A stretch of 32,000 bases of DNA. Source: Crocosphaera subtropica ATCC 51142. Its GTDB lineage: Bacteria > Cyanobacteriota > Cyanobacteriia > Cyanobacteriales > Microcystaceae. The notes below the pieces were generated by a model, which saw only the letters and a program-made list of their open reading frames with translations, did no database searches and was not told where the DNA came from. Each line of letters begins with the position of its first letter. Within the stretch, counting starts at the first letter, position 1. A program made the translations under genes and the position numbers. Shown here one piece after another: positions 198 through 24,292 of this stretch. Where the stretch lies: NCBI RefSeq assembly GCF_000017845.1, contig NC_010546.1, forward strand, positions 1,560,001-1,592,000, written 5' to 3'.

Positions 198-1514
198 ATG
201 AAACGATCATCGGTGGCAATTAGACAAAAGCTTTTAATTCTCGTTAGTTTAGTGCTTCTAGTCGGACTGTTTTTAGTTTCATCCCTTGGAGCGATGAAAA
301 ATCGAAGAGGAGAACAGATCACCATCGCTCAAAATGAAATTATTGACGACGATCTATATGTGTTTGGTGCGATGGTAACAATCGACGGTACGGTAAGAGG
401 GGATGTTATTGGAGCGGGTCGGCAAATTACCGTTAATGGCACGGTTGAAGGGGATCTCGTTGCTGCAGGTCAGGCCATAGTGATCAACGGCACCGTCAAT
501 GACGACGCACGAATTGCGGGTCAGGTTTTGCAGATAGGCACTAATGCTCGCATTGCTGATGATCTCGTGGCAGCTGGTGGCAGTTTCGAGAGCAAAACCG
601 GTAGCACGATCGCCGGAGATTTGTCATTTGCAGCGGCGCAAGCACGGTTAATGGGAACGGTACAGCAGCAGGTGAAAGGGACAATGGCTGCTCTGGAACT
701 AGGGGGTACGGTCGGTCAAAATATGAATGTTACTATAGGTAGCGATCGCCCTTTAGTCGATCCTCCCTTCACTCCACCCTCTCCTGTTGCCATTCCAGTC
801 GTCGCAACCGGGTTAACTATTACTGACTTCGCTCAAATTGGAGGCGAGTTAAACTACCGCTCTGGCAGTGAAGCAACCATCAGTTCGGCTGCCCAAATTG
901 CAGGAGGAGTTAATCGAGAGGGGATCAAACCTGCAACCGCTAGACATACAGTTGAACCTGCTTTAGTGGTATGGGGAAACGTGCAACGTTGGATTACATT
1001 GTTCTTGGTTGGCGTATTGGGATTGTGGCTGGTTCCAGGTTGGATTCAACAGCTAGGCACCACGGTTCAGGCTAAACCCTTACCTAGCCTCGGTTGGGGA
1101 ATAGTGACGGGTTTGATTGTTGGGACTTTGGCGATCGCCGTTCCCGTGATAACCATTATCCTGACAGCTATTTTAGGCTCCTTCCTCTGGAATCTAGTGC
1201 CGTTAATTATGGGTGTTGGACTGTTAACCAATTCAATCTTGGTGATTGGTTTCTTGTTATTTATCAGTTATGTGCCTCCTATTGTTGTTAGTTTTCTGGG
1301 GGGACAATGGTTATTGCACTCCGTTAAGGGCAATGGGTTCTCGAAGCGGATTGTTAAACTTGCTGTTGGCCTACTAATATTCGTATTCCTAAGTGCCATT
1401 CCTCTGTTGGGGGGATTAATTTATCTGATTGTCATCCTGCTTGGTTTAGGCTCACTCTGGATTTTGCTGCAAAACCGTTCCCCATCCAGTCTCAATTATA
1501 GAGAAAATTATTGA
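198..1514 (+). CDS. Membrane-anchored polymer-forming (bactofilin/CcmA-like repeat) protein
   Basis: 438-aa ORF with ATG at 198 and TAGGAG about 8 nt upstream. It has an N-terminal TM helix followed by repeated G.V.GD(V/L).(A)AG..I.(V/I)NGTV units typical of bactofilin-type beta-helix proteins. The C-terminal ~170 aa contain several hydrophobic helices. Confidence 0.8.
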   Translation: MKRSSVAIRQKLLILVSLVLLVGLFLVSSLGAMKNRRGEQITIAQNEIIDDDLYVFGAMVTIDGTVRGDVIGAGRQITVNGTVEGDLVAAGQAIVINGTVNDDARIAGQVLQIGTNARIADDLVAAGGSFESKTGSTIAGDLSFAAAQARLMGTVQQQVKGTMAALELGGTVGQNMNVTIGSDRPLVDPPFTPPSPVAIPVVATGLTITDFAQIGGELNYRSGSEATISSAAQIAGGVNREGIKPATARHTVEPALVVWGNVQRWITLFLVGVLGLWLVPGWIQQLGTTVQAKPLPSLGWGIVTGLIVGTLAIAVPVITIILTAILGSFLWNLVPLIMGVGLLTNSILVIGFLLFISYVPPIVVSFLGGQWLLHSVKGNGFSKRIVKLAVGLLIFVFLSAIPLLGGLIYLIVILLGLGSLWILLQNRSPSSLNYRENY

Positions 1515-1531
1515 AATCAAGGAGACTAACT

Positions 1532-1891
1532 ATGATTGAATACCGAAACAATCCTGACAACAACATTGTGGAAATTAGCGTCGCAGGAAAAATTACCGAA
1601 CAAGACCTTGATCAGATTGTCTCTCGCTTAAAAACTGATATTGAGAAACATGACAAACTGAGAATTCTTGAAGAAATTCGCAGCTTTGATGGCATTGATC
1701 CCATCGCCCTTTGGAAAGATGTGCGATTTGGGTTTGGCTACATCAATAATTTTACCCATGCGGCTGTTGTCGCTGATGCCAAGTGGATGCGAACCTTTGC
1801 CGAAGCAGTGGGCAGCATTTTGTCTGCGGAGGTGAAAGCCTTTGAAACTTCAGAAATAGAAACTGCCAGAATGTGGCTTTCTAAATCATAA
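1532..1891 (+). CDS. STAS/SpoIIAA-like (SEC14-type) domain protein
   Basis: The ORF track starts at TTG 1511. I prefer ATG 1532, which has GGAG 7 nt upstream. The ~119-aa product resembles the small STAS-fold family (IVEISVAGKITEQDLDQIV ... HAAVVADAKWMR). Confidence 0.7.
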   Translation: MIEYRNNPDNNIVEISVAGKITEQDLDQIVSRLKTDIEKHDKLRILEEIRSFDGIDPIALWKDVRFGFGYINNFTHAAVVADAKWMRTFAEAVGSILSAEVKAFETSEIETARMWLSKS

Positions 1892-1922
1892 ACGGTTGAT
1901 TATTCACAAGAAGGTAATAAAG

Positions 1923-2117
1923 ATGACGAATCTACAAGTAAAAAAAGTAATAGGAAAGAAATTTACTTTAAATGAGAAGGTTATTAAGACATTTCAAGAA
2001 GAATTACGGGGTGAACTTGTTCAACCTAATGATACAGATGCAGCCTATGAAGAGTTGCGTAAAGTCTATAATGCCATGATTGATCGGCATCCTGGTTTAA
2101 TTGTTCGTTATTGTTAA
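1923..2117 (+). pseudogene. N-terminal relic of an FAD-linked (BBE/GlcD-type) oxidoreductase gene
   Basis: The 64-aa reading frame LRGELVQPNDTDAAYEELRKVYNAMIDRHPGLIVRYC matches the conserved N-terminal leader of ~450-aa FAD-binding oxidases (xGxLxxPxDxxYxxARxVWNxxIDRRPxxIxRC). It stops just before the FAD-binding domain would begin, and no continuation is seen downstream. Confidence 0.4.
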
Positions 2118-2254
2118 CAATTTGATTTGATAGCTAAGTATTAATTTTCCTAGCTTTGAGCTTTTCAACTCCTGCCTCTAACGCAACTAGGATTGAGTTG
2201 GTAAAAAGTGAGCATGAATATTATCGTAGTTCCAAGAATTTTATCTAGATTATT

Positions 2255-2995
2255 TTAATTATCAACAACAAAATTCCTTTTATTATCATCATTTTCCTCT
2301 AATAAAACTTTAGCAACATCAGGAAAATGAACCTTCATACATTCGTTACAAATACCATGAGTAAACTCGACATCTGAATGTTGCTCAATAAACTTTTCAA
2401 CCGTTGACCAATAACCCTGATCGTTACGAATACCCTTACAATAAGAACAAATGGGAATTAAACCCTCCATTATCTTAATTTTATCTAAGGCGGTGGCTAA
2501 CTGAGAAGATACCCGTCTTAACTCTAACTGTATCATAACTTGACGTGCGAGAGCCTCTAAAGCATTTTTTTGCGACTCCGATAAATCTCTAGGTTTACGA
2601 TCAATAACACAAAGGGTTCCCAGGGGTTGCTTGTTGGGAGTCAATAAAGGAATCCCTGCATAAAAACGAATATAAGGATCAACTTTAACTAATGGATTAT
2701 CCTTAAAACGTTCATCTAAAAAAGTGTCCTTGACAAGCATCATTTCTTGACTCAAAATACACTGGGAACAGAATGAAATATCACGAGGCGTTTGAGCCAC
2801 ATTTAAACCCACTTTGGACTTAAACCATTGACGTTCTGCATCAACAAAAGTAATTAAAGCAATGGGAACATCGCAGATAAATGTTGCTAAACGGGTAATA
2901 TCATCGTAAGCTTGCTCAGAAGGTGTATCTAAAATATTATATTGTTTGAGAGCTTCTAATCGCTCTGTTTCTTGAGTAGGGGTTTTGATTTTCAT
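2255..2995 (-). CDS. GAF-domain sensor protein with C-terminal CxxC-x29-CxxC module
   Basis: 246-aa ORF. The N-terminal part (ERLEALKQYNILDTP...DAERQWFKSKVGL...FYAGIPL) is typical of GAF domains. The C-terminal ICSYCKGIRNDQGYW...HGICNEC is a four-Cys motif. Confidence 0.85.
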   Translation of the reverse strand: MKIKTPTQETERLEALKQYNILDTPSEQAYDDITRLATFICDVPIALITFVDAERQWFKSKVGLNVAQTPRDISFCSQCILSQEMMLVKDTFLDERFKDNPLVKVDPYIRFYAGIPLLTPNKQPLGTLCVIDRKPRDLSESQKNALEALARQVMIQLELRRVSSQLATALDKIKIMEGLIPICSYCKGIRNDQGYWSTVEKFIEQHSDVEFTHGICNECMKVHFPDVAKVLLEENDDNKRNFVVDN

Positions 2996-3205
2996 GGCCT
3001 TAAAAGAGGACTTATTCCCTATGCTGTTTATAAATATTGTAAGAACATCTCATTGAGAAAATCTGTTACAGTCAGTAGTGCTTAACAATAATTAAGAGGA
3101 TAACTCGCCCTAGAAGAGAGGTCATCGATTGATGAATCCAATAAGCTATAGTTATCCGTAGTTTAAAATAAACTAATCATAAAGTCCCAATTTTAGCAGT
3201 TCTGA

Positions 3206-4591
3206 ATGTTACCTGAGTCAACCCTAAACCAACTGAAAAGCGCACTTCCAGACGGTCAATTGCCCCCTAGTTACGGGGTTTACTTCAAAAATACCCTGGT
3301 TGCCCTTTGTCACGCCTTAGAAGACCATATTCTTAAAAGTACCCCCGATGATGATCCCCAACAACATCCCCTAGTCTTAGTGACGTTTCAACAAGGAAAA
3401 TGGTACTTACAAGAAGCTGATCGCTATTATGATATTGCCCAATGTTCTCGTCACATTGCGATCGCAGCCGTAGCCGAAAGTGGGTTTGACAGCCATAAAA
3501 CAGGAAAATTAGACAATGTTTCCTTAGTCCATCTTAATCAAGATGATCCCCTCATTGAAGAGTGGAATTTAATCATTTTAGCCCCAGGCTACGCAGCTAT
3601 GGTACTCTGTCGGGAACTGTCCCCCGAAGACTACCGCGCCGATACCCAACCCCAAACAGACACTGAACGAAAATTTTATGGACTTTGGACTTTTGATCGT
3701 CTTCCCGTTGAAGAGTCGGCTAAAATTTTAATCGAGGGAATGCGGTCTTATAACCCAGAATTAGCTGATCAATTAAGCAAAATGCAACAAGCGATCGCAG
3801 AAACTCCCCAAGATGTCACTATCGATCTTACCGGAGTCGTTTCTCGTATCGTCACTTACTTACAAACCTCTCAGCAACAGTTAGTGACCATTAACCGTCA
3901 AACTAGAGAACTGGTAGACTTAGAAGGGCAGGCCCGAAAATTAAACCGAAACTTGGCCGCTAGTAAGTTACAAGCCTTTCTCCGCATGGCCCAACGGGTG
4001 GATGAAAAAGACAAAGATAACCCCCTCGCTTCCTTGCAAGTATCAGCCCTCGCAGAAACCATCGGACAGTTGTTGGACTTACCCACACTGCAACTAAGAC
4101 GGTTACGCTTAGCCGGGTTATTGTATCGCATTGGCCTCGCAGAAGCCCCCAAAGAAGTGTTTACCCATACCCCCGATCAACTAAATGATTCGAGTTACGC
4201 TTTTTGGAGAGATAGGGCAATGTTAGGATCTCAGTTATTAGCCACTATGCCGGAATTAAAAGCTATTAAAGACATCGTAAGACACCAGTTGGAACATTGG
4301 GACGGAAGCGGTAAACCCAATGGCTTAAAAGGGGAAGAAAACAGCATCGAAGCAAGGATATTAGGCTTAGTTGCCTACTTCCAAGAATTAACCCAACCTA
4401 GAGGCGATCGCCCTGCTCTAAGTTTAGGGGAAGCCTTAGAAAAATGTCAATCTTATCAAGGAAGTTGGTTCGATCCCACCTTGGTTGATACCCTAGCCAA
4501 TATTATTAGATTAGTGGAAATGGGTTTAATGGCATTACCTGATCGTCCCAGTCAACTGCCGGCTATTTGGTTAGAAGAAGCAACAAAATGA
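3206..4591 (+). CDS. DICT-like sensory domain fused to a degenerate HD-GYP domain
   Basis: 461-aa ORF. The N-terminal half resembles the DICT domain. The C-terminal half aligns to the HD-GYP signature (HWDGSGKPNGLKG..I..EARI), but the HD dyad position reads YR (LLYRIGL) and GYP reads GKP. Confidence 0.75.
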   Translation: MLPESTLNQLKSALPDGQLPPSYGVYFKNTLVALCHALEDHILKSTPDDDPQQHPLVLVTFQQGKWYLQEADRYYDIAQCSRHIAIAAVAESGFDSHKTGKLDNVSLVHLNQDDPLIEEWNLIILAPGYAAMVLCRELSPEDYRADTQPQTDTERKFYGLWTFDRLPVEESAKILIEGMRSYNPELADQLSKMQQAIAETPQDVTIDLTGVVSRIVTYLQTSQQQLVTINRQTRELVDLEGQARKLNRNLAASKLQAFLRMAQRVDEKDKDNPLASLQVSALAETIGQLLDLPTLQLRRLRLAGLLYRIGLAEAPKEVFTHTPDQLNDSSYAFWRDRAMLGSQLLATMPELKAIKDIVRHQLEHWDGSGKPNGLKGEENSIEARILGLVAYFQELTQPRGDRPALSLGEALEKCQSYQGSWFDPTLVDTLANIIRLVEMGLMALPDRPSQLPAIWLEEATK

Positions 4592-4600
4592 AGTCATTTA

Positions 4601-4632
4601 GAGTTCGGAGTTCAGGGTTCGGAGTTCGGAGT
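4601..4632. repeat. Tandem heptamer repeat, GAGTTCG family (4.5 units)
   Basis: The units GAGTTCG GAGTTCA GGGTTCG GAGTTCG GAGT lie directly after the stop of the DICT/HD-GYP gene. The same family occurs inverted at 18163-18190. Confidence 0.85.
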
Positions 4633-4729
4633 AAATACACCCTTAACAGGTAGGACGTGAAACCTTGGATTTCTTACTCACAATTCTATCTTTTTTTAGT
4701 TAAAGAACATTAATTTACAATAAATTCTC

Positions 4730-5281
4730 ATGGGTCAAACTATCAATTTAGCGGATATTCGTAACGGAAAAATTAAAGATTTAGCAGGACTAGATTTTTC
4801 GAGAATGGACTTATCCGGGGCAGATTTAACCGGGGCAAATTTATCAGGGGCAACCCTACGAACGAACCTACGAGGGGCAGATTTAACCGGAGCAAATTTA
4901 TCCGATGCAGACTGTCGCAATGCTGATTTAAGAGGGGCTATCTTAGCAGATATTCAAGGCAAAAATGTGAGTTTAGCCGGAGCATTTTTAGCCGGTTCTG
5001 TGTTAAGTCATTTAGATTTAACGGGGGTGGATCTTCGTGGTTGTGATCTGCGAGGGGCAACCTTAACAGGGACGATTTTACAACAAGCAGATTTAAGTAA
5101 TACCAACCTATCGGGGGCTGATTTATCTCAAGCTGATCTCGAAGAAGCTATTCTTAATGGTGCCATTTTAAGAGGGACTAATTTAACCTCTGCTAACCTA
5201 TTATGCGCTCAAATCGAACAAGCTATCATAGAAGGTACATTATTAACTAATACTTGTGTGGAAGGGACTTCTTTAGATTAA
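4730..5281 (+). CDS. Pentapeptide repeat protein
   Basis: 183-aa ORF composed almost entirely of A(D/N)LxG-type pentapeptides (GADLTGANLSGATL...). Confidence 0.9.
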   Translation: MGQTINLADIRNGKIKDLAGLDFSRMDLSGADLTGANLSGATLRTNLRGADLTGANLSDADCRNADLRGAILADIQGKNVSLAGAFLAGSVLSHLDLTGVDLRGCDLRGATLTGTILQQADLSNTNLSGADLSQADLEEAILNGAILRGTNLTSANLLCAQIEQAIIEGTLLTNTCVEGTSLD

Positions 5282-6315: not shown

Positions 6316-7470
6316 CTAATCATTAATTTTGCCTACCTTACTATTATTGATTAATTTTTCCGAAATTTCAATACACTGTTTCAAACTAGCGTTGGTTTTA
6401 ATTGCTTGGGAATTAATATGAGTATTAGTCGCTTGAAAACCATCGTTTTCTAATGCTTCGATAAGTTGCGATCTCTTGGGAATATCTAATTTTCCACGTC
6501 TTCCAATTTCTCCTAAGGTATAAAAATAAGGAGGAAAGTTTGACTCATGGATCATAATTGATAATAAATCACTTACAGTTGACCATTTTAAACTGATTGC
6601 TAAGTTTTTCATGGTTTTTAAATACTCTTTATTATGTAGATTACCTAACCACATTGCTCCTGAAATGGTATAATTATAATATTTATTTTCTTGTTGATGA
6701 TAACAGTTTACTTTGCCTAACTGTTTATAAGAAATAGTTGTATATTCTCCGCAATGATGACAATAACCCAAAAAACCATAGTTATCTAAACTTAGATTAA
6801 TTTTAGGTAATAAACGTAACATAACTCGATAAGTTGACCCACTAAAATAAGCAAAAATTGGCTCAATTCCTAACCCCATCGTTGCTGCTTCTTGTAAACT
6901 ACTACCTATAATTAATCGTAATACTTGTTCTTGGGCTGCAGGATGAGATCGACCATAAGATCCATAATTTTGTAAGCAGTTTTCGGGTAAATGTCCGGTT
7001 CCTGTCCGTCCATCGGTACAAGTTACATAGATTAAACCGTTTATTTTTGTCGCCCATAATACGGTACTTAAATAAGGATTAGGAGAACCGAAAGCATCCA
7101 CATCTACGAAATCATAGTAATCTTTATTATTAAAACATTCAAAAAAGATATTATTGGCATTTTTATAGGTTATTTTACCTTTATTTTTTTGTAAAATAAA
7201 ACCTAAATTGTATTCAATCACGGCTTTATTTTCAGGGTTACTATCATTAGACCAAATAAAGTCCGCATCGCTTTCTAAATAATAACGAATAGAACGAACA
7301 CCACACCCTGTCATTGCATCTAAAACCCGTAACCTTCCTTGTTCACTTTTATAAATTTTTGCTGCTAATACCCCTAAATCTCTGGTTATTTTACTTTGGG
7401 AACGATAGAAAGTATTTCCTAGTGTAAAATTGGCTGTTTCTTCACAGATTAAAGATTCATCATTCATCAA
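6316..7470 (-). CDS. trm1: tRNA (guanine-N2,N2)-dimethyltransferase, Trm1 family
   Basis: 384-aa ORF with Trm1 hallmarks: FYRSQSKITRDLGV, VLDAMTGCGVRSIRYYLE, NDSNPE, VDVDAFGSPNPYL, and a C-terminal Cys/His cluster (CHHCGE...C.H). Confidence 0.8.
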   Translation of the reverse strand: MMNDESLICEETANFTLGNTFYRSQSKITRDLGVLAAKIYKSEQGRLRVLDAMTGCGVRSIRYYLESDADFIWSNDSNPENKAVIEYNLGFILQKNKGKITYKNANNIFFECFNNKDYYDFVDVDAFGSPNPYLSTVLWATKINGLIYVTCTDGRTGTGHLPENCLQNYGSYGRSHPAAQEQVLRLIIGSSLQEAATMGLGIEPIFAYFSGSTYRVMLRLLPKINLSLDNYGFLGYCHHCGEYTTISYKQLGKVNCYHQQENKYYNYTISGAMWLGNLHNKEYLKTMKNLAISLKWSTVSDLLSIMIHESNFPPYFYTLGEIGRRGKLDIPKRSQLIEALENDGFQATNTHINSQAIKTNASLKQCIEISEKLINNSKVGKIND

Positions 7471-7750
7471 ACAATCTCATTAATTAATACTTAAACATGA
7501 TTATTTTAGACTAGAACTTAAAGCCTTCTCTAAATAAGTGTTAAAATCTAATTTATTGATAATGTTCAATTCATCCAGAATACGAGTATTACAACTAAGT
7601 GAGTTTTGCTAACTAACTGATTGTCTAAATAATGACGTAAAATAATTAAAGCACCATTAGGATGTTCAAATACTTTTTGATTACCTTCTGTAGACAGAAG
7701 AGATGGCATTGGTTCATTAAACCATAATTCTACTTATTATACTATATTGT

Positions 7751-9136
7751 TCATTGTTTGCTAATCGGTAACTTTAGCCAATTGCTTAAATTATAAGCCA
7801 ACCAATCTAATTCTGGATCACTAAGATTATCGCCTAAAGAAAATTTCTTTGTCCCTGCCCAAATGTTTATTTTAGATGGAATTTGGACTTGATCTCCGTC
7901 AGAATCTTTTTTATAGGATAAAGCAGTTTGCTCTAGTTTGATAATATCTTGTCGAGAAGCTTTAAGCCAGGGTGAACACACTAACCCTAAGATTTTATAA
8001 ACAAGAATAATCTCTGAAGAGGTAATTCTTAATCGTATCGTTCCAAATAAAGCAAATAAAATTGCCCAAATTAAGCCAATACCAACCCCTAAATGACAAA
8101 TAGCAAATAAAGCAGCGAACCATCCTCCAGAACTCCAAGTTGCCAAGGCACCAGCGTACCATACAAGGAGGAAAGAATTCCAAGCTACCGCAAAACCAAT
8201 AAGCGGAATTAAGGCTAGATGAAACCCATGAGGAGGAATAAGTATATCGAACATTTCTAAGGTCTGTCTCAGTCTTATTTTGCTGCCTGTGGGTTGAACC
8301 AGTTTGGTGGAGTGACTTTTTTGGAGACGGTCTTCTTGTAACGCTTCTAAAGCTTCTTCAGCAGAGTTCAACCGTAAATCAAGACTCGGTTCGGTGAGCC
8401 ATTGCAACCAATTAACCATATTAACCGATAAATTGACCTTATCGGCAAACAATAGTCGCATTTCTTTTTGAGGTAACTCATTAGGAGGATATCCTGTGGC
8501 CAAATAAATCAAAGTTGCACCTACAGCATAGAGATCAGATGCAGGAAGACAGCGATCGCCAAATTGTTCGGGCGGCATATATCCGTAGGTTCCGACGATG
8601 GTTTTAGTCCCACCATGCAGTACAGTTTGAACCGATCCAAAATCTACTAAATACACCTGTCCTACATTATGACCACTGCGATCGCCTAATAAAATATTAC
8701 TGGGTTTAATATCTCGATGGATCACAGAAGGTTGACGTTGATGCAAATAATTTAAAATATTTAATAGTTGGATTGCAATGTTTTTTATTTCCTCTTCACT
8801 AAAGCTTCTTCCAGACTCAATCCAATTTTGTAATGATTTTGCTTCAATATAATTTTGTACTAATGCGAAGCCTTTTCCGAGTTCCGTTTCTAGTTCAAAA
8901 TAGTCAATATATTGAGGAATCGAAGTATGATTTAGAGATTTTAGGGTTGCTGCTTCCCGTTCAAATAGTTTCAAATCATCCCATGTGAATTCAGGAGATA
9001 ATAATAATATTTTGACAACAACTGTTGATCCTGTTGGTAAATCATCGGCTAAAAATGTTCTGCGACCTTTTTGACGACCCAATAAAGATTTAATACAGTA
9101 TTGATGATTTAAAACTTGTCCAATTAATTGCTCCAT
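7751..9136 (-). CDS. Ser/Thr protein kinase with C-terminal membrane domain
   Basis: 461-aa ORF with Hanks kinase motifs (VVVKIL, HRDIKPSNILL, DFGS, GTYGYMPPEQ). These are followed by about three TM helices and a ~90-aa tail. Confidence 0.9.
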   Translation of the reverse strand: MEQLIGQVLNHQYCIKSLLGRQKGRRTFLADDLPTGSTVVVKILLLSPEFTWDDLKLFEREAATLKSLNHTSIPQYIDYFELETELGKGFALVQNYIEAKSLQNWIESGRSFSEEEIKNIAIQLLNILNYLHQRQPSVIHRDIKPSNILLGDRSGHNVGQVYLVDFGSVQTVLHGGTKTIVGTYGYMPPEQFGDRCLPASDLYAVGATLIYLATGYPPNELPQKEMRLLFADKVNLSVNMVNWLQWLTEPSLDLRLNSAEEALEALQEDRLQKSHSTKLVQPTGSKIRLRQTLEMFDILIPPHGFHLALIPLIGFAVAWNSFLLVWYAGALATWSSGGWFAALFAICHLGVGIGLIWAILFALFGTIRLRITSSEIILVYKILGLVCSPWLKASRQDIIKLEQTALSYKKDSDGDQVQIPSKINIWAGTKKFSLGDNLSDPELDWLAYNLSNWLKLPISKQ

Positions 9137-19179: not shown

Positions 19180-19773
19180 ATGTCCTCTTTTGAATATAAT
19201 CAAGAAAGCGATTCCGAAGATATTGATCGTGTGACCCTAACAGATGAGATGGGCCGTACCCTCGATTGTTATGTAGAAAATGCCATGGAAGGTAATGACG
19301 GCACTTATTTATTATTAATGCCTGTTGATATTCCTGTGGTCATTTTATCCTGGGATAGTGAGGAGGAAGACAGTGAGGATAATGAGGAAATTAGTAATGC
19401 TGTCTTATTAGAAGATCAAGAAGAAATTGAAGAAGTTTTTCCCGATGCTAAAGCGGTTTTAGCTGAATTAGATTTAACCCTAAAATTAACTGCTTTTACT
19501 CTAACGGTGACAGGGGAATTACCCCCCATAGAAGATGATGGTATTCTCACTTTAGAATTAGAAAACGATGGACCTTCTCTAGATTCAGAAGAATTACAAT
19601 TTTTAAAAGATTTTTATCATCACGAGCAAAAATACTCTATTTATACCCCCTTATCTCCTTTACTATTTTTAGCTAAATACAATTTACTCGGTAAAGTCGA
19701 GTTAGTTTCCCCTGAAGATGAGGAAATGCAAGTTATCTTAGAAGAATTATTATTTGATGATATAGATGAGTAA
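19180..19773 (+). CDS. Highly acidic conserved hypothetical protein (DUF1292/DUF3727-like)
   Basis: 197-aa ORF rich in D/E. The VTLTDEMGRTLDCYVE...YLLLMPVD segment resembles DUF1292-type proteins of cyanobacteria. The family call is tentative. Confidence 0.75.
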   Translation: MSSFEYNQESDSEDIDRVTLTDEMGRTLDCYVENAMEGNDGTYLLLMPVDIPVVILSWDSEEEDSEDNEEISNAVLLEDQEEIEEVFPDAKAVLAELDLTLKLTAFTLTVTGELPPIEDDGILTLELENDGPSLDSEELQFLKDFYHHEQKYSIYTPLSPLLFLAKYNLLGKVELVSPEDEEMQVILEELLFDDIDE

Positions 19774-20113
19774 TTAAGCGGATTTCATATGACAATTAAA
19801 GATACAAATAATGTCCTAACTAAATTTTTGTCCTCCTATAGTTATTGGATCTTAAATTAATTTATTTTTAATTTTTTTAGGTTATGTTGTTCCATTTTAA
19901 ACCGTTTGGAACTATATTTCTATGTTTTTCTATGTTTTAACACTTTTTTCTACTTATTAAAGCTAAATTTCCCCCTAAGTCCCTAAAATTAATTCAAAAA
20001 TTCCACTTTTTTTAGGACTGACATCTACAAAAAAATCCAGTAACTTAAAAACAGTCAGCCACGAGGCAGGCAAAACGTTAACAAAACAAACATTGTCTTG
20101 GAGTATTAAGAGC

Positions 20114-20446
20114 ATGAAAAACGTACTTATTGGTTTATTAAGCTTAACCGCTTTAGGTGTCTTAACCAGTCCTGCTGTTGCTAATGAAACAGAAGTATCA
20201 GGAGATAAAGTCATCATCCAAAATTCCTATCAAGGTAGTTTCCAAGATGGGAATGGGAACCAAAGCGTTCAAGAAAGTACCCAAGTCCATCGTGAGTTTA
20301 ATGGCAGAAAACCCCGACAAACTGGTAGTTATGGTTCTGTTCAAACCATTGATCAATACCAAGAGCAAATGGGAGAAATGAATAGCTCTCGACAAACCAC
20401 CATCCAACGCACTGAAATGAGAAACCGTAAAGGATCTCGTCGCTAA
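20114..20446 (+). CDS. Small secreted Q/N-rich protein 1 (cassette member, curlin-like motif)
   Basis: ATG 20114 with GGAG 12 nt upstream. The signal peptide is MKNVLIGLLSLTALGVLTSPAVA. The 87-aa mature part has 13 Gln, no hydrophobic core and a basic tail RNRKGSRR. Confidence 0.7.
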   Translation: MKNVLIGLLSLTALGVLTSPAVANETEVSGDKVIIQNSYQGSFQDGNGNQSVQESTQVHREFNGRKPRQTGSYGSVQTIDQYQEQMGEMNSSRQTTIQRTEMRNRKGSRR

Positions 20447-20632
20447 ACTAACTCTCTTGTCTTAAACTGTGCTTAACACTAAAAAGACAGGGTGAACGAT
20501 GAGTTTGCCAATTTCTATCACAATCATCTTCTCCTGTCTCTTCTTAATTTTCTTATTTGTTTCTAGTGTAGCATAGTCCACTTCTCAACTTATTGGTTGT
20601 GTTGTATTTTTTTACCATTAGGAGGGCAAACC

Positions 20633-20965
20633 ATGCACGGGAAAGCCTTCATGCTTTTACTAGCAATTGTCATGAATTTCTCTGTTTCTGCGAGGACTCA
20701 TGCAGGGGAAGTACAAGTTCAAACGGGTAGAATGAATATCGAGCATCGTCGCAATGGTGATACCTCGATCGATACAGAAAATATGCAACTTTCTGTTCCC
20801 AATAACCGTTCCCGCTTTCAACATTATTTCCCTTACAATTCCTCAAATCAATCCACCTTGAAAGGGTGTCGTAATGGTCAGATAGTCCATCAATCTAATC
20901 AACAAATTAATTATTCTAATGGGACGAGCAGCCATCGTTCTGTATCCCATCATCAATGTCGCTAA
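20633..20965 (+). CDS. Small secreted Q/N/S-rich protein 2 (cassette member, 2 Cys)
   Basis: ATG 20633 with AGGAGG 7 nt upstream. The signal peptide is MHGKAFMLLLAIVMNFSVSARTHA. The mature part contains EVQVQTGRMNIEH..., two Cys and a His-rich tail. Confidence 0.7.
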   Translation: MHGKAFMLLLAIVMNFSVSARTHAGEVQVQTGRMNIEHRRNGDTSIDTENMQLSVPNNRSRFQHYFPYNSSNQSTLKGCRNGQIVHQSNQQINYSNGTSSHRSVSHHQCR

Positions 20966-21059
20966 ATTCGTTTTTGGTGACTAATACTTTGAATCAAATG
21001 CTTAATTAACAGCATTTGATTCATCCTAAATTTACTTAAATTGAGAGGAGTTTGATTGT

Positions 21060-21446
21060 ATGAAAGTTATCATATCTATTAGCAATTTTTTATTATTCTT
21101 TTTGATACTAGAGTCTTATTGGATAACCTCAGTAAAAGCTCAATGTGTCCAGGGAGATGTGTCGGTTCAATACAGCATTAGTGGCTCTCAAAAACCCAGT
21201 CAAAGAACCAATGATGTCACCATGAATAGTGACCCGAAATGTCGAGGAAATGCTAGTGTTAGCACAGGGGTACAAGGACATATTGGTCCGAATACGGCTG
21301 AACAAAATCGTCGTGTTGATCAGGTGCAACAAGGTAGTAATAAATATCCCCAAGTCCCCAATGGCACTACGGTACAAATTCGCTCTAATGTTCAAGTGGA
21401 TGTGGATAATCCTGCGGATCGATTTCCCCATCATCCCAAAAAGTAA
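21060..21446 (+). CDS. Small secreted Q/N/S-rich protein 3 (cassette member, 2 Cys)
   Basis: ATG 21060 with GAGGAG upstream. The signal peptide ends SVKA. The mature part contains QCVQGDVSVQYSISGSQ ... TTVQIRSNVQVDVDN. Confidence 0.7.
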   Translation: MKVIISISNFLLFFLILESYWITSVKAQCVQGDVSVQYSISGSQKPSQRTNDVTMNSDPKCRGNASVSTGVQGHIGPNTAEQNRRVDQVQQGSNKYPQVPNGTTVQIRSNVQVDVDNPADRFPHHPKK

Positions 21447-21468
21447 AGGTGTTTTATGAGGTAAAGCC

Positions 21469-21897
21469 ATGTCTTTAAAACCTTTGGCATTAGCTATTTT
21501 ATTTACCGTGATTTTATCGGGTATGGTAACAGGATTATCCGAAGAGTATGGTGCGATCGCTCAAAATTCGATCTCACGACAAAGCAGTTCTATTAACTTG
21601 AATGGGAGTGAATTGAATCAACCCCTTTGGTTACAGATTCAAGGTGTCAATGGAACTAATATTCAAGGACAAATTACAGTGAATGGACAGGTCATCAAAA
21701 CCTTACAAGGAAATAATGAGCAAGTTGATTTATCTAACTATTTAAGTCGAGGAAATTACGAAATTACAGTTCAGGGTAATTATTATCCTTCTCAGGGTTC
21801 GGTTGTCGTTGAGTTGAAAGGAAATCAAACCCAAGTCACTCAACAAACCAGTGGCAATGGATTACTCAATCAACAATTAAATATGGAGGTTAGATAA
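21469..21897 (+). CDS. Small secreted protein 4 (cassette member, more ordered beta-rich appearance)
   Basis: ATG 21469 with GAGG 7 nt upstream. The N-terminal hydrophobic leader is LALAILFTVILSGMVTGL..GAIA. The mature part contains LWLQIQGVNGTNIQGQITVNGQVIKTLQGNNEQ...YEITVQGNYYPSQGSVVVELKG. It also contains a HIP1 site (21553-21560). Confidence 0.75.
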   Translation: MSLKPLALAILFTVILSGMVTGLSEEYGAIAQNSISRQSSSINLNGSELNQPLWLQIQGVNGTNIQGQITVNGQVIKTLQGNNEQVDLSNYLSRGNYEITVQGNYYPSQGSVVVELKGNQTQVTQQTSGNGLLNQQLNMEVR

Positions 21898-21902
21898 GTT
21901 TT

Positions 21903-22190
21903 ATGGGACGAAAAATAAGTCAAATTGGATGGATTAGTATTAGTCTATTAACCTTGCTCCCCATTCCTACTGTTGCTCAAACTACCACCAGTCAAACCGG
22001 TAGTTTAGAGGCTAATATTGAAGGAGATAATAATCAAGTCTACCAAACTATTAATCAAACGATTATTAACCATCCTGGGAAGGGTTCGGTTCAACGAAAT
22101 CAAGGTAATCATCAGAAAAATCCCCAAAAAAGTTCTCGTTCTGCCTCCCATCGACATTCTCAGGATAGAGAACATCCTCGTCATCAATGA
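21903..22190 (+). CDS. Small secreted Q/N-rich protein 5 (cassette member)
   Basis: ATG 21903 lies 5 nt after the preceding stop, with GGAGG upstream. The signal peptide is WISISLLTLLPIPTVA. The mature part contains ANIEGDNNQVYQTINQTIIN followed by a basic, His-rich tail. Confidence 0.7.
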   Translation: MGRKISQIGWISISLLTLLPIPTVAQTTTSQTGSLEANIEGDNNQVYQTINQTIINHPGKGSVQRNQGNHQKNPQKSSRSASHRHSQDREHPRHQ

Positions 22191-22213
22191 TGATTAACTT
22201 AACAATTAAGGAC

Positions 22214-22241
22214 TAGGGTGAATGACTCTCACCCTATTTTT
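22214..22241 (+). terminator. Rho-independent terminator closing the five-gene cassette
   Basis: TAGGGTGA-atgactc-TCACCCTA forms an 8-bp stem, followed by TTTTTAT. It lies 24 nt after the stop at 22190. Confidence 0.8.
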
Positions 22242-22333
22242 ATGATTCAATATTACTTGCAACTATGATATAATCTTAGACAGGTAAAAAAATAAAGATT
22301 AATATATTTAATTGTGTCATTTATTGTAAACAC

Positions 22334-22666: not shown

Positions 22667-22960
22667 ATGAGAGTTTATTTAAAAGATGATATTTTATATA
22701 TTAATCAAGAAGATTTACCTACTTATAAAAAAGGGGGATCAATTGTCAGAAATAGTTATTTTTGGGCATTAAAATCTATTAGTTGTTATTCTAGAAAAGG
22801 AAGAGATTGGGAATTTGATGCAGTCGTTTGGATTGCATTGTGTCGTATGTTATTATCCTTTGCTCAGTCAGGATACCTAGGGGACTCAGAAACTTTGCTA
22901 GAGTTTGACACAGATACCCCCATTCCCAGGACGTTACGGTCAGTTTCTACTTGGTTATAG
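22667..22960 (+). CDS. Orphan hypothetical ORF (97 aa), doubtful
   Basis: This is the only ORF over 60 aa in the 0.9-kb spacer. It has no SD, no recognisable motif and is very AT-rich. Confidence 0.25.
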   Translation: MRVYLKDDILYINQEDLPTYKKGGSIVRNSYFWALKSISCYSRKGRDWEFDAVVWIALCRMLLSFAQSGYLGDSETLLEFDTDTPIPRTLRSVSTWL

Positions 22961-23176: not shown

Positions 23177-24292
23177 ATGTTAAGCCGTATCCAAGAGACC
23201 ATTGGGGGTTTATTTGGGGGAAAGTCTGATGGGGTAGGTTTAGAAATTACCCCTGAGAGATTGAACTTAGCTAAACTGACTAAACATGGTCAAGGCTATA
23301 AAATAGCCAAATTTTGTACCGCAGAAGTACCTGAAGGTATTTTTGAAGAAGGAAAAATTGTTGATTCTCCAGGGTTAGCTGAACTAATTCAGGAGTTCTT
23401 AACTGAAAACAAAATCAAGACCAAACGCATTGCCACAGCGGTTCCTATGCGAGAAGCCATTATTCGTATTATACCGGTTCCGGCTGAACTAGATGAAGCG
23501 GAATTGCGAGATATGGTTTTAAACCATGAGGCTGCCTTGTACTTACCCTATCCTAGAGAAGAAGTGGATCTAGACTATCAAAAACTAGGTTTCTTTGAAG
23601 ACGAAGATGGTATTGAAAAAGTGCAAGTCTTACTGGTAGCAACCCGACGGGAAGTCACAGACTCCTATATGGATACCTTTGGTCAAGCAGGATTACAAAT
23701 CGATGTCCTAGAAATCAATAGTTTTTCTGTAATTCGTACGATTCGCGAACAACTACGGCAATTTGGGTCTAGAGAAGCAGCTGTGTTAGTGGATGTGGAG
23801 TTTGATAGTACCGAAATTGCCATTGTCGTCGATGGGGTTCCCCAATTTTCTCGAACCGTTCCCATTGGAACCTTTCAGATGCAAAATGCCCTGTCACGGG
23901 CGATGAATTTACCCCCTTCTCGCAACCCGGAAATTCTGCAAGGAATGACCATTCCTGTTACCCAGTTCGATAGCTTAACCACCCAAGGAACAGCCGTTAA
24001 TCCAGGAATGACCGCCTTGATGCGGGTATTAGGAGAATTAACCGACGAGTTACGTCGTTCCATTAACTTCTACTTAAACCAAAGTGAAGAATTGGAGGTA
24101 GTTCAACTCCTATTAGCTGGACCCGGAGGGGGTTTAGTGCAACTGGATGAATATTTTACCCATCGTCTCAGTTTGCCCACCATGCAAATCGATCCCATTG
24201 CTGCTTTATCCTTAGAAATAGATAAGGAAATCCCTGCTGTCCAACGGCCAGCTTTAGGTACAGTCTTAGGTTTAGGATTACGGGAGGTGTAG
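23177..24292 (+). CDS. pilM: Type IV pilus assembly protein PilM
   Basis: 371-aa actin-like ATPase fold protein (GLEITPERLNLAKL..., VLVDVEFDSTEIAIV) at the head of a pilMNOQ-ordered cluster. Confidence 0.9.
   Translation: MLSRIQETIGGLFGGKSDGVGLEITPERLNLAKLTKHGQGYKIAKFCTAEVPEGIFEEGKIVDSPGLAELIQEFLTENKIKTKRIATAVPMREAIIRIIPVPAELDEAELRDMVLNHEAALYLPYPREEVDLDYQKLGFFEDEDGIEKVQVLLVATRREVTDSYMDTFGQAGLQIDVLEINSFSVIRTIREQLRQFGSREAAVLVDVEFDSTEIAIVVDGVPQFSRTVPIGTFQMQNALSRAMNLPPSRNPEILQGMTIPVTQFDSLTTQGTAVNPGMTALMRVLGELTDELRRSINFYLNQSEELEVVQLLLAGPGGGLVQLDEYFTHRLSLPTMQIDPIAALSLEIDKEIPAVQRPALGTVLGLGLREV

Follow-up and report, generated by a model that had tools for sequence, protein, structure and literature searches.

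A conserved five-gene cassette of small exported proteins in Crocosphaera subtropica ATCC 51142 as a candidate extracytoplasmic fibre or matrix system

In this work, we analysed a window of 32,000 nucleotides of Crocosphaera subtropica (formerly Cyanothece sp.) ATCC 51142 (contig NC_010546.1, positions 1,560,001 to 1,592,000; all coordinates below are those of the window) and focused on five consecutive same-strand open reading frames (ORFs), cce_1572 to cce_1576, here called g1 to g5, each of which is deposited as 'hypothetical protein'. We propose, with a confidence that stays just short of even, that this cassette encodes an extracytoplasmic fibre or matrix system which follows a curli-like logic and has no dedicated channel. 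Such a polymer or matrix fits best because the five products carry export signals and form a fixed set with a pronounced major-to-minor expression ratio, because a repeat protein of variable copy number is the most abundant of them, and because a low-abundance paralogue with a differing tail, two all-beta accessory proteins, the behaviour of an accessory gene set and the absence from whole-cell proteomes go along with it. That g1 to g5 polymerise, which part each of them plays and where they reside is what we infer from these data. Little is known about the proteins of the cyanobacterial extracellular matrix, and the cassette is a good candidate for it, as it belongs to the most transcribed loci of a model diazotroph, is without annotation, is conserved from Crocosphaera to Oscillatoriales and responds up to about 7-fold to CO2 supply and the dark phase.

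Gene content, conservation and expression

A first-pass annotation, made from the sequence alone, had described five ORFs with individual Shine-Dalgarno sites and a common terminator, and sizes, gaps and signals were all confirmed. All features of the cassette lie on the forward strand. From ORF call and hydropathy, g1 (20114..20446) encodes a predicted exported protein of 110 aa with two Q/N repeats and a basic tail and gives the top transcript of the five; g2 (20633..20965), for which a hidden Markov model (HMM) is additionally available, likewise encodes a predicted exported protein of 110 aa and gives the second-highest transcript. They are followed by g3 (21060..21446; 128 aa, predicted to be exported and, from homologue clusters and an AlphaFold2 (AF2) model, all-beta with a Cys29–Cys61 pair), g4 (21469..21897; 142 aa, predicted to be exported, with an immunoglobulin (Ig)-like beta-sandwich at residues 38–142 in the AF2 model) and g5 (21903..22190; 95 aa, predicted to be exported, with one Q/N repeat (GDNNQVYQTINQTIIN) and a His/Arg-rich tail). 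The spacers g1–g2, g2–g3, g3–g4 and g4–g5 measure 186, 94, 22 and 5 nt, a GGAG-type ribosome-binding site lies 6–15 nt 5' of every ATG, and a terminator-like hairpin with a T-run closes the operon (22214..22246; hairpin 22214–22236 with 8 pairs, then TTTTTATGAT). An Rfam engA match on this terminator was sub-threshold and was rejected. The start codons of g1 and g2 differ by record, with TTG in GenBank (20093 and 20597, yielding 117 and 122 aa) and proteins of 110 and 104 aa in RefSeq. We favour ATG 20114 for g1 and ATG 20633 for g2, giving 110 aa each, because of the orthologue alignments and an AGGAGGG site 6 nt upstream.

All five genes are under purifying selection. Pairwise ratios of non-synonymous to synonymous substitution rates (dN/dS) against the window genes are 0.10–0.40 for every gene (0.58 in one saturated comparison), with 0.15–0.24 for g1 within Crocosphaera. 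The complete set, its order unchanged, is found in C. chwakensis CCY0110, two Crocosphaera metagenome-assembled genomes (MAGs), Rippkaea orientalis PCC 8801 and a Microcystaceae MAG, while Cyanothece sp. BG0011 carries g1–g4 in the same order on an examined stretch that ends before g5. The cassette is thereby syntenic in at least six other genomes, and the conservation across genomes that the first-pass annotation had left to be checked was found, with set and order kept under shuffled flanks. In Acaryochloris, Oscillatoriales and Pleurocapsa-type contigs, the cassette is present in shortened form. No member is conserved more widely than g3, for which an exhaustive search returned 63 representative clusters (E < 1e-3); except for a few long multi-stretch proteins and short fragments, these are of 120–160 aa with a signal peptide and two conserved Cys, and they share the pattern AQCV..DV.VQ...C.GN...VDVYNPA. 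Around g3 homologues in 13 metagenomic contigs, retrieved in a metagenome scan with a three-sequence alignment, and in several MAGs, the adjacent genes once more encode small proteins with signal peptides. These neighbours are recognised by HMMs of the orthologues from Crocosphaera and Rippkaea: the g2 model matches the ORF directly upstream of the g3 homologue in 7 distant loci (E 2e-5 to 8e-9), the g4 model matches downstream (E 1.7e-30 and 8e-20), and the g1/g5 models match repeat proteins upstream (E 1e-5 to 1e-7). Among 19 homologue clusters of g4, 18 share its length of 142 aa and one, from an 836-bp contig, measures 94 aa; a wider g4 search gave 36 homologue clusters.

The presumption that the cassette is native rather than recently acquired was borne out at the level of the phylum. 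Wherever a source of the g3 family is named, it is cyanobacterial (Rippkaea, Acaryochloris, Laspinema, Phormidium, Argonema and unclassified MAGs); the g4 family has a Pleurocapsa MAG as well, and nearly every recovered contig shows a strong enrichment of the HIP1 octamer. Some copies reside on plasmid-like or transposon-rich contigs, and among the g4 homologues there is no named C. watsonii protein, though the database includes C. watsonii proteins; the cassette behaves as an accessory gene set.

In agreement with the description of products without recognisable domains, scans of g1–g5 against Pfam, NCBIfam, PHROGs and PADLOC gave nothing above threshold. Matches to Glyco_hydro_2_N (g4), DpdI, Cas1b and ATP synthase b lay far below the cut-offs and were dismissed, and a Pfam scan of 45 g3-family members yielded scattered single matches only. 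Every homologue is annotated as 'hypothetical', the locus tags cce_1572–cce_1576 appear in no main text of the literature searched, and the literature on cyanobacterial functional amyloids and exoproteomes held nothing relevant to the cassette genes. As far as these tools show, the cassette, its repeat family, the folds of g3 and g4 and the two RNA elements described below are undescribed; the genes have been in databases since 2008.

Each of the five proteins has one N-terminal hydrophobic stretch (Kyte-Doolittle 15-residue maximum 1.9–2.7, within residues 3–25), whereas the mature parts stay at a hydropathy maximum of at most 0.37 with no second hydrophobic stretch. The AxA-type cleavage motifs AVA, THA, VKA, AIA and TVA of g1–g5 are kept in orthologues while the h-regions vary, and the AF2 model of g3 has a helix at residues 2–20. 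Judged by rule-based inspection, all five carry what a Sec substrate of type I signal peptidase requires, namely a basic n-region, a hydrophobic h-region of 10–15 residues and small residues at −3/−1, supporting Sec export of g1–g5. Sec-type leaders with AxA-like sites on every product and Q/N-rich mature parts had both been anticipated and both held up, the latter with Q+N at 18–24% and Q/N/S/T/G at 41–51% of the composition. Leaders of the G/FTLxE or double-glycine kind are indeed missing, as the leaders are hydrophobic, end in AxA and pass directly into polar sequence.

For expression, we used values from the supplements of published studies. In a CO2-shift microarray series, g1–g5 show near-identical profiles that are classed as dark-peaking, with log2 ratios of 8% CO2 to ambient of about −0.2, −1.45, −1.2, +2.8, +2.0, +1.5 and +2.8 and an amplitude at later time points that declines from g1 to g5; in the same series cce_1577, downstream of the cassette, peaks in the light and goes in the opposite direction, and the pil gene quoted there (cce_1579) is little changed (PMC3574086). 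The supplementary RNA-seq values over eight conditions, in reads per kilobase per million mapped reads (RPKM), are 1,674–4,932 for cce_1572, 1,068–3,301 for cce_1573, 190–479 for cce_1574, 195–416 for cce_1575 and 234–432 for cce_1576, with all five peaking in one common sample and the flanking genes at 6–248 RPKM (PMC4630603). The different pattern and lower RPKM of cce_1577 are consistent with an end of the operon at the terminator-like hairpin. Co-regulation and family scans together support the description of a single operon of five small exported proteins without recognisable domain.

Three whole-cell proteomes report no peptide of g1–g5, whereas cce_1571, cce_1577 and PilM (cce_1578) were detected there. 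Since a predicted tryptic digest yields 2–6 peptides of 7–35 residues per mature protein and the mRNA is of the top tier, this absence fits export or insolubility. It might also be cited, together with the low-complexity composition, the missing family matches and overlapping ORFs in other frames, for spurious ORFs or a non-coding region, a case that the first-pass annotation had itself raised as fatal to its proposal. To this explanation we assign next to no chance, because dN/dS values of 0.10–0.40, lengths and order that are kept across genera, confident models of g3 and g4 and high transcript levels all oppose it, and the comparative data already refute it.

Repeat family and predicted folds

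The first-pass annotation had called the products paralog-like, which stands for g1 and g5 and falls for g2, g3 and g4. Aligned by hhalign, g1 and g5 reach a probability of 95% (E 1.7e-8) and are thus detectably paralogues at the level of sequence profiles. Common to both, and to the repeat proteins of distant loci, is a Q/N repeat of 28–32 residues with the consensus Q...Q.A.AVG..N.V.Q...Q, derived from 24 aligned units; it is present in one copy in g5, in two copies in g1 (residues 34–65 and 75–106) and in three copies elsewhere, e.g. in loci L086 and L078, and a copy number that differs between lineages is also seen in structural repeat proteins. To either side of the G..N turn, the information content of the repeat rises and falls with a period of 2 (24/10,000 and 495/10,000 shuffles reaching the observed value). 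This pattern is the signature expected of two beta-strands with one conserved face each joined by a tight turn, and would follow the same logic as curlin repeats.

The C-terminus of this family varies. A g5-like homologue at locus L077 (5402–5935) contains two repeats and ends in VPEP, a hydrophobic stretch and KKRRK, scoring 13 bits against TIGR02595 with a cut-off of 16. Because this homologue has a PEP-CTERM-like tail in place of the basic tail, the C-terminus of g5-like proteins could be an anchoring device, although this is no more than hinted at. The same tail, along with an Exosortase_EpsH gene (L091 1–469) located 6.5 kb from a cassette, is what could be adduced for the cassette being part of an exosortase/PEP-CTERM-type surface system whose products are sorted outward together with exopolysaccharide (EPS). 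PEP-CTERM proteins are indeed comparable as small secreted low-complexity proteins of EPS-producing bacteria, with the L077 protein as one distant g5-like homologue bearing such a tail. However, g1–g5 have neither a C-terminal hydrophobic segment nor a PEP motif, their tails are basic or His-rich, and no match to the sorting domain (TIGR02595/PF07589) was obtained for them; the L077 match is sub-threshold and confined to one lineage, and no exosortase was seen near the other cassettes. We consider membership in such a system improbable.

With g2, g3 and g4, the cassette contains three further, separate families. In the orthologue alignment, g2 is marked by the motif AGE(V/I)x(V/I)QTG near its N-terminus and by a pair of Cys residues near its C-terminus; a paralogy with g3 or g4 was rejected at hhalign probabilities of 40% and 24%. 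In contigs of the Pleurocapsa type and from stromatolites, a poly-Ser linker joins the g4 beta-sandwich to an N-terminal motif that looks like that of g2 (AQISVETDSGKIEINNGEIKIDGRD) (A5 rows P0170–P0183; L086 5663–6223, reverse strand; L090 7001–7558); comparison of this motif with the g2 profile does not support the resemblance (weak hhalign probability of 24%). By the Rosetta-stone argument, a g2-like motif fused to a g4 domain hints at an interaction between g2 and g4.

The AF2 model of g3, computed from 45 sequences, is all-beta with five strands of 10–12 residues (mean predicted local distance difference test, pLDDT, 89.5). Its top Foldseek matches, none of them significant, are all beta-solenoids, namely FapC, bactofilin, HET-s and antifreeze proteins. 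An internal repeat of g3 (rung 1 against rung 2, hhalign probability 25%, E 7.5e-4) is suggestive only and was not used further. For g4, the model based on 27 database homologues is a nine-strand Ig-like sandwich with a pLDDT of 93–98 over residues 38–142. No Foldseek match of g4 falls below E 1e-3; the best ones are the EbpB basal pilin domain of Enterococcus and CbhA FN3-like modules (E about 0.02, template modelling (TM) score 0.43–0.45), and an Ig-like fold as in g4 occurs in pilin and adhesin domains. We additionally observed a second g3-family gene on the Rippkaea plasmid pP880101 (L089 521–892), with a caspase-domain protein three genes on, and the start of a caspase-like ORF also follows the g3 homologue of metagenomic locus L079 (4880–5149).

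Candidate assembly and its relation to known systems

We propose a model in which the cassette is a self-contained operon and its five Sec-exported products would jointly form a polymer or matrix beyond the cytoplasmic membrane, located either within the envelope or at the cell surface. The major subunit would be g1, whose two Q/N repeats would each fold as strand, G..N turn and strand, allowing copies of g1 to stack into a beta-solenoid-like fibre as curlin repeats do. The equally abundant g2 may act as co-subunit or partner. The single-repeat paralogue g5, made about tenfold less, could serve as nucleator or as anchor via its basic/His tail, which in another lineage would be swapped for a PEP-CTERM-like tail. 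The compact, disulfide-containing all-beta g3 and the Ig-like sandwich g4 would be low-copy accessory, capping or adaptor proteins, and conserved RNA hairpins would set the stoichiometry within the transcript. In its most specific form, this amounts to a cyanobacteria-specific, functional-amyloid-like (beta-solenoid) fibre built of a new repeat family, with its own nucleator or anchor, cap and Ig-like accessory, able to assemble with no dedicated channel in the outer membrane and induced by darkness and high CO2 in unicellular diazotrophs. Taken together, this combination of features is possible but doubtful, and we hold it with clearly less confidence than an extracytoplasmic polymer or matrix as such.

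Several points weigh against this interpretation. The putative beta-solenoid fold of g1 and g5 is deduced from the periodicity of conservation, and the repeats are few (1–2 in this strain) and separated by linkers. The Curlin_rpt model is not matched by g1–g5 (E up to 1) nor by eight distant repeat proteins (E up to 10), neither a three-repeat protein nor the g3 profile found a PDB sequence when matches up to E 10 were admitted, and the Foldseek matches of g3 are not significant (E >=0.7, TM <=0.24). The absence of g1–g5 from the proteomes counts as negative evidence only. Finally, neither an outer-membrane channel nor an usher or sortase-like enzyme is a recurrent neighbour of the cassette, as judged from the window and the flanks of eleven loci; the first-pass annotation had noted the lack of a dedicated channel in the window, which is confirmed and extends to the related loci. 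Without a recurrent channel, passage beyond the periplasm, or even a destination in the thylakoid lumen, is unexplained, and this is the main weakness of the model.

It is at this point that the main rival gains weight, in which g1–g5 would be soluble, non-polymeric envelope proteins of the periplasm, the thylakoid lumen or the medium, which would serve as hydrophilic protectants or bind exopolysaccharide, metals or the cell wall, with the Q/N repeats as binding modules and g3 and g4 as small folded domains for binding. We grant it a real, if minor, chance. Apart from the missing export channel, it would account for the very hydrophilic nature of the proteins with their basic or His-rich tails, for the weak resemblance of g4 to sugar-binding and FN3-like sandwiches, for glycosyltransferase or EPS-type genes near several loci and for the strong CO2 and dark-phase response, which resembles that of carbon-overflow and EPS-related genes; the carriers, moreover, are mostly coastal, mat or stromatolite cyanobacteria. 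However, a fixed set of five genes that are expressed at 10:1 and include a repeat protein with a changing number of copies is more typical of a multi-subunit assembly, abundant soluble periplasmic or lumenal proteins would be expected in at least one whole-cell proteome, and glycosyltransferase neighbours are common in cyanobacteria and not constant at the cassette.

The comparison of an extracytoplasmic fibre or matrix with the curli and Fap operons, which the first-pass annotation had drawn from the architecture, gains indirect support as an analogy from the strand-turn-strand repeat and the all-beta g3, whereas membership in either system fails on every feature that could be tested. For functional amyloids in general, the absence of g1–g5 from whole-cell proteomes joins the repeat periodicity and the g3 model as an indirect hint. 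As in the curli system of Enterobacteria (csgBAC/csgDEFG), several small (95–150 aa) Sec-exported proteins are encoded together, a major and a paralogous minor subunit (CsgA/CsgB, here g1/g5) can be distinguished, Q/N/G-rich imperfect repeats carry a G-x-(G/x)-N turn with flanking strands conserved at every second residue, and a small Ig-like accessory, g4, is comparable to CsgC. Unlike curli, the cassette is without sequence homology, no CsgA or CsgB chain having come up in the PDB sequence search, and its repeats are of 28–32 residues in 1–3 copies with linkers, in contrast to five tandem repeats of 19–23 residues. The curli pattern S-x5-Q-x-G-x-G-N-x-A-x3-Q differs from that of the cassette, which is not arranged in tandem. 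No CsgG-like channel, CsgE, CsgF or CsgD is found in the window or the flanks of the eleven loci, and two equally abundant products, g1 and g2, derive from unrelated families. With Fap of Pseudomonas (fapABCDEF), the cassette shares the layout of an operon that encodes major and minor subunits in the form of secreted repeat proteins, and FapC is the top-ranked structural neighbour of the g3 model, which at E 0.7 and TM 0.24 is non-significant and equals no match; a FapF-type barrel, a FapD protease and sequence similarity by Pfam are lacking.

Within cyanobacteria, a parallel in layout is provided by EbfG1–4 of Synechococcus elongatus PCC 7942, small secreted proteins encoded in an operon and linked to matrix or biofilm, of which one member is reported to form amyloid. 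EbfG proteins carry double-glycine leaders and are handled by a transporter with C39 peptidase, PteB. Both are cyanobacterial operons of several small secreted proteins; they differ in that g1–g5 have Sec leaders with AxA sites and no conserved C39 or ABC transporter nearby. As regards chaperone-usher and TasA-type fibres, no Pfam match to a PapD-like chaperone, an usher or TasA/camelysin (Peptidase_M73) was found, and g4 is Ig-like. Membership in the curli, Fap, pilin, EbfG, PEP-CTERM or chaperone-usher systems was consequently rejected, as every testable defining feature failed.

To our knowledge, no cyanobacterial fibre system has been defined beyond type IV pili, S-layers and the EbfG peptides of one Synechococcus strain. 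If the cassette does encode a fibre or matrix, it would explain part of the aggregation, adhesion and mat formation of coastal nitrogen-fixing cyanobacteria, add a sequence-unrelated family to the functional amyloids and give engineered living materials a compact module of five genes. Should it encode neither, it still comprises four new protein families (g1/g5, g2, g3 and g4) and two conserved RNA elements that are worth naming.

Genomic context and RNA elements

Downstream of the cassette lie pilM (23177–24292) and, 3' of it, pilN, pilO and the secretin gene pilQ. The first-pass annotation was right in placing pilMNOQ downstream, yet the next gene is cce_1577 (22667–22960), an unrelated gene of 97 aa that sits between the cassette and pilM. 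Its suggestion that the cassette cooperates with the pilus apparatus is not supported, since the adjacency turned out to be specific to ATCC 51142, cce_1577 is regulated differently and cce_1579 changes little. In CCY0110, whose PilM is 99% identical to that of the window, the cce_1577 homologue precedes pilM and the cassette does not; there the cassette is found on a different contig, flanked by DUF3727 and a DegT aminotransferase. In BG0011, a surE-DUF3727-cassette block is inverted and separated from pilM by 8 kb that include dnaK and grpE, and elsewhere the flanks are an M48 peptidase, a K+ channel and a lipase, thioredoxin and pyrF, or a methyltransferase. Given these other flanks in other genomes, the adjacency to pilMNOQ is best regarded as a rearrangement accident of this strain. 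The pilMNOQ genes are not part of the cassette system, with which the expression data agree.

Accordingly, we give very little credence to the cassette encoding substrates or accessory parts of the type IV pilus or PilQ secretin machinery. This explanation starts from the position of pilMNOQ about 1 kb downstream in this strain and from the metagenomic locus L086, where repeat-protein and g4-like genes follow a prepilin-peptidase-like gene (7074–7907, reverse strand), the only other pilus-related neighbour seen and probably there by chance; cyanobacterial PilQ has moreover been implicated in protein secretion. It is contradicted by CCY0110, which has cce_1577–pilM without the cassette, by the inverted block 8 kb off in BG0011 and by the unrelated flanks in four other genomes, and further by the terminator and unrelated gene between the cassette and pilM, by differing expression patterns and by the lack of a class III (G/FTLxE) leader or a pilin Pfam match in g1–g5.

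The gene in between, cce_1577, is conserved, cytoplasmic-looking, present in the proteome and without Pfam match. It adjoins pilM in CCY0110 and SU3, while in a Crocosphaera MAG its homologue (L069 8985–9278) adjoins the cassette without pilM, and from this change of partner cce_1577 seems to mark a recurrent rearrangement breakpoint. On the 5' side, cce_1571 (19180–19773), a very acidic DUF1292/DUF3727 protein, is found together with surE upstream of the cassette in three genomes and not in others.

Turning to regulation, the roughly 200 nt 5' of g1 are 71–81% identical over five genomes, two of them with unrelated upstream genes, whereas identity falls to 38–49% beyond. Because this conserved stretch persists despite unrelated upstream genes, the cassette appears to have its own control region, and we infer that 19912..20113 comprises the promoter and 5' untranslated region. 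Within it, three direct repeats of the TTTTTCTA type (tttctatgtttttctatgttttaacacttttttctac) at 19912–19960 may be where a regulator of the response to darkness and CO2 binds.

Two structured elements are located in the spacers. The g1–g2 spacer contains an element of about 120 nt (20460..20582), in which a 16-bp imperfect hairpin and a U-rich tract are enclosed by an outer 14-bp helix; it is 86–92% identical between genomes, compared to 58–77% at third codon positions of the genes, and has a minimum free energy (MFE) of −30.4 kcal/mol (z = −4.9). There is no Rfam match to it, its covariance model matches Crocosphaera cassettes only, and sequence variation among the copies is too small to show covariation. 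In the g2–g3 spacer (MFE −21.2 kcal/mol, z = −3.2), a 13-bp hairpin (20990..21023) is a candidate partial terminator or mRNA-stabilising stem. Its stem is invariant across Crocosphaera while the loop is variable, and Rippkaea displays one compensatory U–A to A–U change. It is at this hairpin that RPKM values fall 5- to 10-fold between g2 and g3, suggesting that partial termination or 3'-end stabilisation sets the ratio of about 10:1 between the major (g1, g2) and minor (g3–g5) products.

The single HIP1 site of the cassette lies at 21553, within g4. Long ORFs in other frames overlap g1 and g3 at 21129–21470 (reverse), 20198–20407 (reverse) and 21229–21459 (forward), one of which recurs in BG0011; these are most likely by-products of a stop-poor, Q/N-rich coding frame.

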